Assembly: GCA_964415805.1 (NCBI GenBank)
Contig: CAYQBQ010000001.1
Location: 6,641-41,722 of the forward strand
DNA length: 35,082 nt
DNA from: an uncultured Clostridium sp.
GTDB taxonomy: Bacteria > Bacillota > Clostridia > TANB77 > CAG-508
Reading direction: 5' to 3'
In this document: one piece after another, positions 3,541-32,436 of the stretch
How positions within the stretch are numbered: the stretch's first letter is position 1
Layout of the letters: every line of letters begins with the position of its first letter
The notes under the pieces: model-generated
Told to the model about the DNA's origin: nothing
Seen by the model: the letters and a program-made list of their open reading frames with translations, nothing else
Databases searched by the model: none
Made by a program: the position numbers and the translations under genes

Positions 3541-6327
3541 TTGGAAAAGAAAAGAAGTAAAACAAGGATGATGATAGTACTGCTATTTATAGTAATATTT
3601 GCAATAGGAACATATATAAGCTTAAGAGGAACATATTTACAATATAAAGAATTGGGAGAAAATTATGTACAAGCATTTTTTACTAACTTAAGTTACAAAT
3701 ACATAATTTTTGGAGTTAATTTCATATTCTTATATACATTAATATATTTTACAAATAGAGGAATAAAAAAAGGATTAAAGACGTTTTTTGAAAAGGAAAA
3801 TAAAGAAATGCCAAAGCTATTAAACAAATCAATAGCATTTGTAGCATCAGTTATTGTGAGTACATTTATGTCTAATATATTAATGAAAAAAATATTATTA
3901 TGTTCAAGCAATGCATCTTTTGGAGTAACAGATCCTATTTTTGGGTTTGATATAGCATTTTACATGTTCCAAAAACCACTAATAGAAACTTTATTGATAT
4001 ATTTAATAGGAATAATTATTGGAATAACTATTTACATGGCATTATATTACGTAATTATATTCAACAAATATTTTGATGGTGTAGAAGGAAAAATGCTAAG
4101 GAACAGTTTATTAATAAAAAAACTATTAAGAAACATTGCACTAATAATAATATGTATAGGAATATATACCGCTATAGGAACAACGAACATATCCCTTAGT
4201 AAGATGTTAACAATCAAAAATCAAAATAAAACTTCTGAAAACATTGAAATTATAGGAGCTGGATATACAGATAACATAATTCAAAGATGGGGATACTTAA
4301 TATTCTCAGTAGTTATTATAGTAGCTTCATTAAAAGCTATTAAAGCATTTAAAAATAATGATACTTCAAGAGTTATTAAAAATTTAGCTATAATTCCTGG
4401 ATATTTGATAGTAATGTTTTTTGTTATAATATCTTTTGATTTAATTTTTGTAAACTCAAATAAATTAGATAAGGAGAAAGATTATTTAGAAAATAATATA
4501 AAATATACAAAAAGCGCTTATAATATAGATATAGAAGAAGAAAGCAGAGAAAATACAGGAACTATAACACAGACAGAAGTTAACGAAAATAGCGATATAA
4601 TAAATAATATAAAATTAATAAATAGCGACGTGGTATTAAAAACATTAGATTATAACCAAACAGGAACAGGATATTATTCATATAGGAATGCCAATATTGC
4701 AAAATATAAAGTATCAGGAGAAAATAAATTAGTATACATATCAACTAGAGAGATTACTAATTCAGGAAGAACATACAATAATAAAACATATGAATATACA
4801 CATGGAAAAGGTCAAATTGTAGTTGATAGTACATCAACTACAGAAGCAGGGGCAATAAATTATATCCAAAAGGATGTATCTGGAAAAGATGAGCAGTTAG
4901 GTACAACAAATTCAGAAATATATTTTGGATTAGAAACAAATGATATAATTGCTACTAATACAAAAAATAAAAAGGAATATGATTATACAGATGAAGATGG
5001 GTTAGAACATACATCAACATATAATGGAAATGCTGGATTACAACTTGGATTTATAGATAGATTAATACTAGGAATAAAGACAGGTGATTTAAAACTTGCA
5101 TTTTCATCTGAAATAACAAATGATAGTAAAATATTAATAAATAGAAATATTATAAAAAGAGTAAAGGAAGCAATGCCGTATCTAATATATGATGAAGAAC
5201 CATACACTGTTGTAACAGAAGAAGGAAAAATTGTGTGGGTAATAGATGCGTATACTGTTTCAAGTGAATATCCTTATTCACAATATACAACAATTGAACA
5301 TGATGGAATAAAAGAAAAAATTAATTACATCAGAAATTCAGTAAAAGTAATAATAGACGCATATGACGGAACAATGAGATTTTATGTAACAGATAAAACG
5401 GACCCAATTGCTATGGCTTATAGAAATATATATACAACATTATTTGAAGACATAAATACAGAAATACCACAAGATATATCAGAACATTTTGTATATCCAA
5501 AATATTTATATAATGTACAAGCGAAACTTTTAAAAATATATCACAATGTAAAAGCAGATATATTATATAGAAAAGATGATTTATGGGATTTCGCAAAATA
5601 TAATAATACAATAATAACAAAATCATCAGGTACTGTACTAAAACCATATTATACAATGTTTAATTTAAATGGAAAAAGTGAGATTGGATTAATTCAGGTT
5701 TATACGCCAGATTCAAAACAAAACTTAATTTCTTATTTGGTTGGTACAACAGAAGGAAATGCAAATAAATTAAAATTATATAAATTTACACAAGATAGTA
5801 ATATTTTAGGTCCAATGCAATTAGATAATCAAATAGAACAAGATGAACAAATCTCTTCTGAAATAAAGGCGTTAAACACAACAGGAACAAGAGTTACAAA
5901 AGATATGGTGGTAGTTCCTGTAAATAACACATTATTATATGTTGAATCAATTTATCAAACAATGCTAAATGAAGAGTCTAAAATACCAATACTTAAAAAG
6001 GTAGTAGTTGCTTCTGGAAATAAAGTTGCAATTGGAGATAATTTAGAAAATGCTTTAAAAAATTTATTATCAAAAGAAGCATCTAATATTGAAGTTGAAA
6101 ATACTGATGATATTGATGGGTTAATTGAAGCGATTGTTAAGGCTAATAAAAATTTATCTGAGTCTACTAATAATAAAGATTGGGAACTTATGGGATCTGA
6201 TATTAAGAAGTTACAGAGTTTAATTGATTCTTTGGAAGCAGAAAAAGTAAAGGAAGATAAGAAAAAAGCTGAGAATAAAAATGAAGTTAATGAAGTAAAT
6301 AATGTAATAGAAAATATAGTAGAATAA
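3541..6327 (+). CDS. UPF0182 (COG1615) family large membrane protein
   Basis: 928 aa with a TTG start after AAGGAGG. It has a multi-TM N-terminal third, a large soluble domain, the LLYVESIY motif near the C terminus, and a coiled acidic tail. Size and architecture match UPF0182 proteins of Clostridia. Confidence 0.8.
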   Translation: MEKKRSKTRMMIVLLFIVIFAIGTYISLRGTYLQYKELGENYVQAFFTNLSYKYIIFGVNFIFLYTLIYFTNRGIKKGLKTFFEKENKEMPKLLNKSIAFVASVIVSTFMSNILMKKILLCSSNASFGVTDPIFGFDIAFYMFQKPLIETLLIYLIGIIIGITIYMALYYVIIFNKYFDGVEGKMLRNSLLIKKLLRNIALIIICIGIYTAIGTTNISLSKMLTIKNQNKTSENIEIIGAGYTDNIIQRWGYLIFSVVIIVASLKAIKAFKNNDTSRVIKNLAIIPGYLIVMFFVIISFDLIFVNSNKLDKEKDYLENNIKYTKSAYNIDIEEESRENTGTITQTEVNENSDIINNIKLINSDVVLKTLDYNQTGTGYYSYRNANIAKYKVSGENKLVYISTREITNSGRTYNNKTYEYTHGKGQIVVDSTSTTEAGAINYIQKDVSGKDEQLGTTNSEIYFGLETNDIIATNTKNKKEYDYTDEDGLEHTSTYNGNAGLQLGFIDRLILGIKTGDLKLAFSSEITNDSKILINRNIIKRVKEAMPYLIYDEEPYTVVTEEGKIVWVIDAYTVSSEYPYSQYTTIEHDGIKEKINYIRNSVKVIIDAYDGTMRFYVTDKTDPIAMAYRNIYTTLFEDINTEIPQDISEHFVYPKYLYNVQAKLLKIYHNVKADILYRKDDLWDFAKYNNTIITKSSGTVLKPYYTMFNLNGKSEIGLIQVYTPDSKQNLISYLVGTTEGNANKLKLYKFTQDSNILGPMQLDNQIEQDEQISSEIKALNTTGTRVTKDMVVVPVNNTLLYVESIYQTMLNEESKIPILKKVVVASGNKVAIGDNLENALKNLLSKEASNIEVENTDDIDGLIEAIVKANKNLSESTNNKDWELMGSDIKKLQSLIDSLEAEKVKEDKKKAENKNEVNEVNNVIENIVE

Positions 6328-6330
6328 AAA

Positions 6331-6373
6331 AGGGATTGAGGGGCCACCACACCAAATCCCTCTTTTTATTTTT
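6331..6373 (+). terminator. Intrinsic terminator for the UPF0182 gene (left arm of the palindrome)
   Basis: AGGGATT (6331-6337) pairs with AATCCCT (6355-6361), followed by CTTTTTATTTTT. Confidence 0.6.
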
Positions 6374-6484
6374 AATATTATAAGTAATTATTATATATTA
6401 ATATTTAAAGAAAAAGTCCCTATGGAAGACCCGAAGCAGCATTTTTTCTGAAAATATTAATATATAATAATTACAGTTTAATTT

Positions 6485-6528
6485 ATAAGAAAAAAAGAGG
6501 GATTTGGTGTGGTGGCCCCTCAATCCCT
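6485..6528 (-). terminator. Intrinsic terminator for tyrS (right arm of the palindrome, same hairpin on the - strand)
   Basis: This is the reverse complement of the left arm. On the - strand the hairpin is followed by CTTTTTTTCTTAT. Confidence 0.6.
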
Positions 6529-6530
6529 TT

Positions 6531-7742
6531 TTAAACTAATTTATAAAATACTTTTTTACCTTTTTTCAAAATAGCATATCCATCTTTAAAATCAACATCT
6601 GAAAGAACATAGTTCACATCAGAAATTTTATTATCATTTAAAGAAATACCACCTTGATTAATCAAAGTTCTAGCTTGCCCTTTAGAAGGAGCAATACCAG
6701 TTAAAATAATAGCATCCAAAATTGAAATATTTTTATCAGTCAATTCAACAGTAGGCATATTATCCAAATTACCTTTACCAGTAAATAGGGCATTGGCAGC
6801 TTCCTCAGCTTTTTTAGCTTCTTCTTCACCATGAACTAATTTTGTTATTTCAAAGGCAGCAATTTTCTTAGCTTCATTAATATGTTCATCTTTTAAAGAA
6901 GCAAGTTCTTTTATTTTGCCCAAAGGTAAAAATGTTAATAATTTTAAAACATTTTCAACACTTTCGTCTTCAATGTTTCTCCAATATTGATAAAATTCAT
7001 ATGGAGAAGTTTTTTCAGAATCTAGCCATAAAGCACCTTTTTCAGTTTTACCCATTTTTTTACCTTCTTTTGTTGTAAGAAGTTTGAATGTTAAACCAAA
7101 GGAATCATCTTTTCCAATTTTTCTGATTAAATCAACACCACCAATGATGTTAGACCATTGATCATTTCCACCCATCTCTAGTTTACATCCATATGTTTCA
7201 TATAAATGCAAAAAATCGTAAGATTGCATAAGCATATAACTCATTTCGAAAAATGTTAAACCTGTTTCCATTCTTTGTTTGTAACATTCTGCTGCAAGCA
7301 TTTTGTTAACAGAGAATAGGCTACCAATGTCTCTCATAAATTGAACAAAGTTCAAATCTAATAGCCAGTCTGCATTGTTTACTATAATTGCAGCATTTTC
7401 ACCTTCAAAACTAATAAATTTTTCAATTTGTTTTTTAATACATTCAACATTGTGGTCAATTGTTTCTCTTGTCATCATTTTTCTCATATCAGTTTTTCCA
7501 GAAGGGTCACCAATTGTAGCTGTACCACCACCAACTAATATAATAGGTTTATGTCCACATTTTTGCATATGGCTTGCAACCATTAAAGAAACAAAGTGTC
7601 CAACATGAAGACTGTCTGCTGTTGGGTCAATTCCAATATAAAAAGGAACACTCTCTTTTCCAAAAAGTTCTTTAATTTCTTGAGGATGAGTCATTTGTTC
7701 AATATAGCCTCTTTCTTCTAAAATATCAAATACATTCGTCAT
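6531..7742 (-). CDS. tyrS: Tyrosine--tRNA ligase
   Basis: 403 aa with HIGH (HVGH) and KMSKS-type (KMGKT) motifs and a C-terminal S4-like domain. No T-box leader fits in the 37-nt gap upstream. Confidence 0.95.
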
Positions 7743-26902: not shown

Positions 26903-27760
26903 ATGATTAATTTTACAAATTGCAAGGAAGAACTAAATAATTATAAGGGCTCTGAAAAAAAGAAAACACTCATATATGAAAATAAAAAATATTTAGTCAA
27001 GTTTCCAGACCCAATAAGAGAAAAAAATAAAAACATATCATATATAAACAATGCATTCTCTGAATATATAGGAAGTAACATTTTTAAAATTGTAGGATTT
27101 CCAACTCAAAATACGATTTTAGGAATATACAAATATAATGAAAAAGAAAAAATAGTATGTGCATGTGAGGATTTTACAGATTCAAGCAAAACCTTATATG
27201 AATTTGAAAATCTTGCATTAAGTACAAATCCAGACAAAAAAATTGAAACAGAATTATCAGATATTTTAAATGTATTAGATGAAAATAAAATAATAAATTC
27301 AACTAAAATCAAAGAAAAATTTTGGGATATGTTCATCATAGATGCTTTAATAGGAAACACAGACAGACACAATGGAAACTGGGGATTCTTAGTAGATAAT
27401 CAAACTAAAGAAGTAGAGTTTGCACCAATATATGACTGTGGTTCTTGCTTAAATCCAATGATAGATGATAATGAAATGGAAAAGTTAAAGGAAAATGAAA
27501 TAAAGAACTTAGCTATAAATTGTTATTCTTGTTTAAAAAAAAATGGTAAAAAAATAAACTATATGACATATTTAAGATATACCAAAAATGAAGAATGCCA
27601 TAAAGCTATTATTAGAGTGTTTAAAGACATAAATATTATTAAAATAAATAACTTTATAGATGGAGTATCTTGTATGTCTAATATAAGAAAAGAATTTTAT
27701 AAAGAAATAATCAATATAAGATATAAAATTATAGAGGAGTGTTATAATAAAATCAAGTAG
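26903..27760 (+). CDS. Short HipA_C-like serine/threonine kinase domain protein (orphan)
   Basis: 285 aa with the catalytic loop GNTDRHNGNWGF and a downstream PIYDCGS motif. RBS AAGGAG. No HipB-, HipS- or HTH-like partner ORF lies in the 296-nt upstream gap or downstream. Confidence 0.75.
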   Translation: MINFTNCKEELNNYKGSEKKKTLIYENKKYLVKFPDPIREKNKNISYINNAFSEYIGSNIFKIVGFPTQNTILGIYKYNEKEKIVCACEDFTDSSKTLYEFENLALSTNPDKKIETELSDILNVLDENKIINSTKIKEKFWDMFIIDALIGNTDRHNGNWGFLVDNQTKEVEFAPIYDCGSCLNPMIDDNEMEKLKENEIKNLAINCYSCLKKNGKKINYMTYLRYTKNEECHKAIIRVFKDINIIKINNFIDGVSCMSNIRKEFYKEIINIRYKIIEECYNKIK

Positions 27761-32064: not shown

Positions 32065-32109
32065 CAACATGAAAAACGTAAATATAAAAAATTAATGTAG
32101 GTGAAAAAA

Positions 32110-32436
32110 ATGTACTATACATATATGATAAGATGTGCAGACAACTCAATTTATACAGGAATAACAAATGATTTAAACAAACGTCTAAATGAACACAAAA
32201 CAAAAAGCAAAAATGGAGCAAAATACACAAAATCACATACTGCAATAAAATTTGAAACAGTATGGAAAAGCAGGGACAAATCATTAGCATGTAAGCTAGA
32301 ATATCAAATTAAACAACTTACAAAAAAGCAAAAAGAAAATCTAATAAATGGAGAAAGATTATCAACATATCTACACGGAAAAGTAGACTGCAGGAGATAT
32401 AGAAAATGCTCATCTATTAATGATGCCATACTTTGA
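32110..32436 (+). CDS. GIY-YIG nuclease superfamily protein (UPF0213/YazA/YhbQ-like)
   Basis: I prefer the ATG at 32110 (MYYTYMIRC...IYTGITNDLNKRLNEH). This is the classic small stand-alone GIY-YIG domain. Its TGA stop is the first triplet of the repeat at 32434. Confidence 0.85.
   Translation: MYYTYMIRCADNSIYTGITNDLNKRLNEHKTKSKNGAKYTKSHTAIKFETVWKSRDKSLACKLEYQIKQLTKKQKENLINGERLSTYLHGKVDCRRYRKCSSINDAIL

Follow-up and report, generated by a model that had tools for sequence, protein, structure and literature searches.

A long palindrome at the UPF0182/tyrS junction of an uncultured gut Clostridium as a probable REPIN-like doublet of a RAYT-associated repeat family

A 206-bp near-perfect palindrome fills the junction between the convergent UPF0182 family and tyrS genes in a 35,082-nt stretch of DNA from an uncultured Clostridium sp. 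(GenBank assembly GCA_964415805.1, contig CAYQBQ010000001.1, positions 6,641 to 41,722; hereinafter referred to as the window). Judged from its sequence relatives, this palindrome is a copy of a repeated element and not a one-off regulatory device. It is probably a doublet comparable to the REP doublets forming hairpins (REPINs) of other bacteria, in which two inverted 29-nt repetitive extragenic palindromic (REP) hairpins enclose a conserved palindromic core and the hairpin family belongs to a REP-associated tyrosine transposase (RAYT) of the Y1/HUH type. The element has been inherited at this locus, its inner segment has flipped, probably by recombination between the arms, and at this junction it probably serves as a pair of back-to-back terminators.

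Results

Structure of the palindrome

The two inverted arms were complementary at 41 of 41 positions (AAAAAGGGATTGAGGGGCCACCACACCAAATCCCTCTTTTT). Recomputation also recovered the perfect inner 23-nt blocks and the unpaired apex of about 25 nt (gtccctatggaagacccgaagcagc) described in the original prediction, although the start of the right block is shifted forward by one base from its position in a symmetric reading, to 6452. The whole 206-bp element folded at -113.7 kcal/mol, compared with -38.9 +/- 4.1 kcal/mol for shuffled sequences (z = -18.2). Both stop codons overlapped the arms, that of the UPF0182 gene (TAA, 6325-6327) by one base and that of tyrS (6531-6533, minus strand) by two bases, so that, as previously proposed, no ordinary spacer DNA is left between the two genes. 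Each arm also folded on its own, at -10.7 to -16.7 kcal/mol, and was followed by a U-run (TCTTTTTATTTTT or TCTTTTTTTCTT). In the left arm, the 29-nt core (6332-6360; GGGATTGAGGGGCCACCACACCAAATCCC) was preceded by an A-run and followed by TCTTTTT, in the sense orientation for UPF0182. The adjoining left linker completed the UPF0182 U-run.

The apex loop contained the direct repeat GTCCC-N7-GACCC (6416-6432). A 14-codon minus-strand open reading frame (ORF) in the apex was rejected as a gene candidate, as it had no ribosome-binding site and was not conserved in the sister-species locus L002. The apex also carried a CGG triplet (6430-6436; minus strand CTT CGG GTC) where L002 had TTTGGG, and no credible ORF was seen there.

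Arm units dispersed in related genomes

The arm was sought in one genome per species, and its copies were counted in the loci (designated L) retrieved from related uncultured gut Clostridia. In 7 metagenome-assembled genomes (MAGs) of these Clostridia, 25 loci held 33 matches to the pattern GGGGCCACCACNCCAAATCCC. With no more than three mismatches, the 29-nt arm core GGGATTNNGGGGCCACCACNCCAAATCCC was present in the retrieved loci in at least 59 distinct copies. In the 35-kb window itself, the arm core matched twice, with zero matches expected, and both matches were the arms of the palindrome. The arm consensus was GGGATT-NN-GGGGCCACCAC-N-[C/A][C/A]AAATCCC, with an almost invariant loop, and the base pair directly outside the arm core covaried (36 A-U and 12 C-G pairs among the 59 copies). 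In three metagenomes containing the window organism, contig depth summed over the arms exceeded the depth of the flanks by a factor of 20-35, or of 54-80 when matching was looser.

Inverted pairs accounted for 36 of the 59 units, at spacings of 33, 49, 74, 82, 147 or 159-161 nt, and the other 23 were solo. By a crude ORF call, 14 of these 23 solo units lay within 40 nt after a same-strand stop codon, to which four were added by eye. At least six T residues were present in the next 10 nt of 17 of the 23 solo units, and most were oriented as at the window junction. T-runs followed the arms in copies at gene 3' ends and were absent in the operon-internal copies at L001, L110 and L112. Neither arm nor core was found in viral contigs or phage records, plasmids yielded only 48-nt AT-rich chance matches in Bacillus, and a metagenome scan for the tyrS flank together with the arm pattern gave no match.

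Two further observations concern individual loci. The stop codon of a por-like gene for a thiamine pyrophosphate-binding subunit was the TAA inside the REP core (GGGAT-TAA-GGGG) at L001 (5679-5686), L017 (around 2600) and L020 (around 5735); the repeat therefore encodes the end of a conserved gene, its final codons and stop included. At L008 (7684-7780), a doublet of the arm REP family enclosed a hairpin of the GAACCAAT...ATTGGTTC type, that is, one repeat family was nested in another.

A RAYT-like transposase gene between inverted arm units

Locus L001 encoded a 251-aa protein (5725-6480, minus strand) with a Y1_Tnp domain (45.1 bits; cut-off, 23). Its best NCBIfam match was the REP-associated tyrosine transposase (REP_Tyr_transpos; 64.7 bits), while the IS200 model scored 20.6 bits. 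An HxH motif and the YIHFNPYKAGIV / YIYINPVKHGWV motif (YIHxNP) aligned with the E. coli TnpA-REP structure (4ER8), and both were invariant in 7 homologues. The gene was located between inverted arm units at 5679-5707 (plus strand) and 6606-6634 (minus strand), 920 bp apart, and the same layout of a transposase gene between inverted arms was present at L017 and L124. Arms about 900 bp apart had been considered as the ends of an insertion sequence; this candidate was rejected, since the pair encloses the RAYT-like gene, which points to a REP-RAYT layout and not to a multi-copy insertion sequence.

Homologues with 58%, 42% and 37% identity were flanked by their own inverted hairpin variants (GGGGGCCAGGTCTTC, GGGAC types and GAACTTTTGGGGACAGTCTTAAAAGTTC), and hairpin and transposase therefore appear to change together. 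The protein database held 289 homologues of the 251-aa protein, many of them on contigs of about 900-1000 bp, a length to be expected if the flanking repeats interrupt assembly. In this clade, the RAYT-like proteins carried about 100 extra C-terminal residues (P0001, residues ~150-251; L001 5725-6030, minus strand). This extension ended in a conserved LTNKEIxEFLGIGKNRI and gave a weak, below-cut-off helix-turn-helix signal (HTH_24, E 0.003).

An arm-to-arm contig of 938-952 nt, approximately 98% identical to L001, was present in four bovine or sheep gut metagenomes at depths of 13.5 (X1), 10.5 (X4), 44 (X5) and 16.3 (X7). The depth of the window flanks was 12-15.5 in X1, about 11 in X4 and about 44 in X5. 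As the two depths agree, the window organism very probably carries the RAYT-like gene, at single-copy depth.

The conserved core

Between the arms, the palindrome contained a core of about 81 bp, consisting of the AT-rich inverted blocks and the asymmetric apex, whose pattern matched 13 further loci in 7 MAG species. Arm and core are thus both dispersed repeats. A diverged paralogue of the whole element (L001 3016-3200) was situated between porG-like and porD-like genes. The apex was conserved across copies as AGAAAAAG-WCCC..GG-W-AGACCC...TTTTTTC, and four base pairs just beyond the fixed blocks covaried (e.g., GTAAT/ATTAC, AGAGAT/ATCTCT and TTTGT/ACAAA). All 14 composites filled their spacer, and wherever the ORF call was reliable, the core lay 49-72 nt away from the flanking ORF. 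Eight were located between convergent genes, about five between co-directional genes and none between divergent ones.

The outer hairpins of the composites varied, being of the arm REP family, decayed versions of it, the GGGGACAGGTC type (L114), another type (L108), or missing (L107). This variation speaks for a different order of events, in which the core would be the primary functional or mobile unit, perhaps a structured RNA or a sequence bound by a nucleoid protein, and the REP hairpins would have accumulated secondarily. Three types of outer hairpin accompanied the core and one copy had no such hairpin, the apex was identical at 48 of 49 positions between the window and L107 of another species, and the arms at the orthologous L109 locus had decayed. 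Nevertheless, the conservation of the core looks inflated because the search pattern fixed 32 of its bases, and gene conversion among copies could likewise hold it uniform. No Rfam family matched at the gathering score (MIR7723, at 63 bits versus 200, reflects nothing beyond a long AT-rich hairpin), and the orientation of the core to its neighbouring genes was inconsistent. Moreover, the shorter doublets resembled central deletions of the composite, not empty targets, and L024 had lost exactly the apex between two ATATTAATAT repeats. On balance, we regard a core that came first as improbable.

History of the tyrS junction

TyrS orthologues were obtained from 80 species, and a single-gene TyrS tree placed the window in a well-supported clade of five species (L027,(window,(L109,(L116,L028)))). 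At the tyrS junction, the composite was present in one orientation (A) in the window organism and in UMGS1423 (L109), and in the other (B) in CAKPNF (L027 and L002) and CAKPAB (L116). UMGS1516 (L028) had a single 41-nt hairpin of a related type. In several outgroups, the junction was occupied by hairpins of an ordinary or unrelated kind, by hairpin doublets of other types, or by an additional small gene.

The inner 124-126 bp of the window and L002 were identical at 118 of 126 positions when one of them was flipped and at 96 of 132 when not. The linkers flipped together with the core, which places the breakpoints inside the arms. On the TyrS tree, these orientations imply at least two inversions of the inner segment of about 125 bp. 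At the variable positions, the two arms were GA/GA in the window, as against AA/AA in L002; the arms are thus identical within a species and different between species, which indicates concerted evolution. That both arms differ from those of the sister species at the same position, and that the inner segment is flipped, bears out the earlier expectation of a recent event or active maintenance.

Inversion at one locus could also mean that the element is an inverton, the arms being recombination sites and the inner orientation controlling antisense or small-RNA transcription into UPF0182 or tyrS. Such a switch would account for the two orientations in sister species with breakpoints in the arms, and for an apex that is both asymmetric and conserved. 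It is at odds with the assembled records, in which orientation was uniform per species (4 of 4 records in CAKPNF, 3 of 3 in the window species), so that flipping looks like a rare evolutionary event and not like phase variation. Promoter-like sites were not in excess (3, versus 2.9 in shuffled sequence), no recombinase gene was found among the scanned ORFs, and in the operon-internal copies the apex had no consistent orientation relative to transcription. An inverton is therefore very unlikely.

The junction also varied in other ways. Among the loci L027 to L106 (e.g., L029 and L085), the hairpin family differed from lineage to lineage, and several had loops of the GGGGAC type. The L085 tyrS junction held a 118-nt composite palindrome of GGGGACGGAC hairpins. 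In many species, a small membrane-protein gene was inserted between tyrS and UPF0182.

Insertion signatures and assembly support

Terminal inverted repeats, small size, and many copies in several genomic contexts are also what would be expected of a classical miniature inverted-repeat transposable element (MITE), an insertion sequence deletion derivative whose 41-nt ends are bound in trans by a DDE transposase. The original prediction, which had listed a MITE with terminator-like ends among its possibilities, was essentially right in this, insofar as the arms and core are dispersed repeats. The arms themselves appear to be REP units tied to a RAYT-type Y1 transposase and not classical transposon ends. 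No direct repeat indicative of a target-site duplication bordered the copies in the window or at L002, L001, L110 and L112. The supposed inverted repeats are self-folding hairpins that also occur solo and in a fixed orientation after genes, the transposase gene that they flank is of the Y1 and not the DDE type, and no DDE transposase was found among the scanned ORFs. A classical MITE is thus highly improbable.

Assembly error, and likewise an inverted duplication of a single terminator confined to this locus, can be regarded as refuted: long palindromes are a known assembly hazard and short-word contigs do break in the arms, but independent assemblies and an arm-crossing contig match the window, and unrelated loci carry paralogous copies. 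In three independent metagenomes, contigs tiled the same arrangement. A contig of X25 was unbroken from 6413 to 6578 and spanned the entire right arm, and L026, a Logan contig with an identical TyrS, had the same join as the window. The orientation was readable only in L026 and in one X25 contig among the Logan contigs. A raw-read run (X24) held no reads of the organism, and RNA runs yielded sparse contigs that were uninformative on 3' ends. Further, the full-length element was present in four independent assemblies of the sister species CAKPNF. The palindrome as originally described is accordingly real.

Features of the window

The features of the junction are listed in Table 1. Two other genes in the window were recorded: one (26903-27760) for a protein of 285 aa carrying the C-terminal kinase domain of HipA (E 5e-11), which is a possible toxin of a toxin-antitoxin pair, and one (32101-32436) for a 111-aa GIY-YIG domain protein (PF01541, E 1.1e-16).

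Table 1. Features at the UPF0182/tyrS junction, in window coordinates.
Feature	Position	Strand	Basis or remark
UPF0182 family gene	3541..6327	+	PF03699, E 2.4e-173; ORF list
Left arm, REP unit	6327..6367	+	Perfect inverted repeat of 6492-6532; fold -15.4 kcal/mol
Left linker ATTTTTAATATTATAA	6368..6383	.	Comparison of the window with L002/L027; moves with the inner segment on flipping
Left inverted block of the core, 23 nt, AT-only GTAATTATTATATATTAATATTT	6384..6406	.	Core pattern in 13 other loci
Core apex, A/T stem AAAGAAAAA / TTTTTTCT around the asymmetric loop 6416-6440	6407..6451	+	Kept in copies of 7 MAG species
Right 23-nt inverted block AAATATTAATATATAATAATTAC of the core	6452..6474	.	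Core pattern in 13 other loci
Right linker AGTTTAATTTATAAGAA	6475..6491	.	Complement completes the tyrS U-run
Right arm, REP unit (core 6499-6527, minus strand)	6492..6532	-	Sense orientation for tyrS
tyrS, tyrosine-tRNA ligase	6531..7742	-	PF00579, E 9.6e-83, plus SYY C-terminal and S4 domains

Discussion

The dispersed arm units and the RAYT-like gene enclosed by them suggest how a REPIN-like doublet could have come to lie between UPF0182 and tyrS. A RAYT acting on single-stranded hairpins would most likely have spread either the hairpins or the whole doublet. The composite was probably gained in the ancestor of the five-species clade and has been inherited vertically since. Recombination or gene conversion between the identical 41-nt arms has probably flipped the inner 125 bp at least twice, and the same process would keep both arms identical. 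At the junction, each arm with its U-run may serve as an intrinsic terminator and 3' stabiliser of the incoming gene, and the twin arms most likely act as back-to-back terminators for UPF0182 and tyrS. RNA from read-through would form a duplex of about 200 nt, a likely substrate for RNase III.

Several points weigh against this explanation. The signs of mobility, which are paralogous copies and the differing junction contents of sister species, are indirect. The NCBIfam score of the 251-aa protein (64.7 bits) was below the model cut-off of 80, the match to its closest solved structure, 4ER8, was weak (E 0.054), and the RAYT was placed in the window organism through the match of metagenome depth. 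The GTAG/CGTC tetranucleotide at the hairpin foot was absent from the units, which start with GGGATT and have their invariant bases in the stem and loop. That two inversions are needed depends on a single-gene tree. The terminator function assigned to the arms in the original prediction fits their independent folding and the U-run that follows, but a standard terminator scan did not call them, because the hairpin has only three G-C pairs and a 17-nt loop, atypical for a terminator. Finally, a core found with other hairpins (L108 and L114) or with none (L107), and better conserved than the arms at the orthologous L109, is unpredicted by a plain REPIN model.

The REP/REPIN-RAYT systems of E. coli and Pseudomonas (Bertels and Rainey, 2011, PMC3116915; Bertels et al., 2017, PMC5581495) resemble the present family in having a hairpin unit repeated tens of times outside genes, both solo and in inverted doublets, and a Y1/HUH gene with inverted units on both sides, here at single-copy depth in the examined metagenomes. 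Vertical inheritance at a given locus and a hairpin that changes with its transposase are also shared. In contrast, the host here is a clade of uncultured gut Clostridia, a class noted only as also hosting Group 1 RAYTs, and a strong REP association was reported only for RAYT Groups 2 and 3 (Bertels et al., 2017, PMC5581495). The hairpin units carry their conserved motif in the loop (GGGG[A/C]C...) and lack a GTAG foot, the transposase is about 100 C-terminal residues longer than E. coli TnpA-REP (165 aa), which lacks the extension, and the conserved inner segment of about 125 bp is far longer than the usual REPIN spacer.

The element also resembles BIME-1/RIP of E. coli, a bacterial interspersed mosaic element (BIME) in which two inverted REPs surround a conserved central motif with a site for integration host factor (IHF). 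In both, an inverted REP pair encloses a conserved asymmetric module, at gene 3' ends and within operons. The core sequence in the clostridial element is unrelated, however, and no IHF-type consensus was seen in it.

Correia repeat-enclosed elements of Neisseria are likewise small palindromic repeats filling intergenic spacers, and they can act as transcription terminators or be cleaved as RNA hairpins. They differ in their 26-bp inverted ends, which are not self-folding, and in their TA target duplication. To our knowledge, Correia elements have no link to a RAYT. Their inner part is inverted between strains, according to the text of a review (Elbeyioglu et al., 2017, as cited in PMC10969869). 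In addition, an intrinsic-terminator-like dispersed repeat of a Firmicute treated in that review text also nests or clusters with other repeats; its sequence is unrelated, and the text describes no associated transposase (PMC10969869).

There is a small chance that the core, with its AT-only inverted blocks and an asymmetric apex containing GWCCC-N7-GACCC, is a functional module of its own, present clade-wide in uncultured gut Clostridia and repeatedly framed by whichever REP family is resident. If so, a protein of the nucleoid or of replication might dock there, comparable to the binding of IHF at the centre of BIME-1, or the core might be a structured RNA, and its flipping between the arms would be more than neutral.

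REP and REPIN populations with their RAYTs have been characterised mainly in Proteobacteria. The present family is a dispersed hairpin family that appears to be tied to a RAYT-like gene in uncultured, AT-rich gut Clostridia, with a hairpin that varies together with the transposase across the clade. It would thus offer a second, distant lineage for testing how REPs persist and what the host gains from them. The link to a RAYT is probably the reason for many of the hairpins with conserved loops that occupy intergenic spacers of these genomes, and it would account for the contigs of about 900 bp into which assemblies break where the transposase gene lies. Further, it suggests that even a conspicuous palindrome, lying between two essential genes, does not have to be a regulator specific to its locus.

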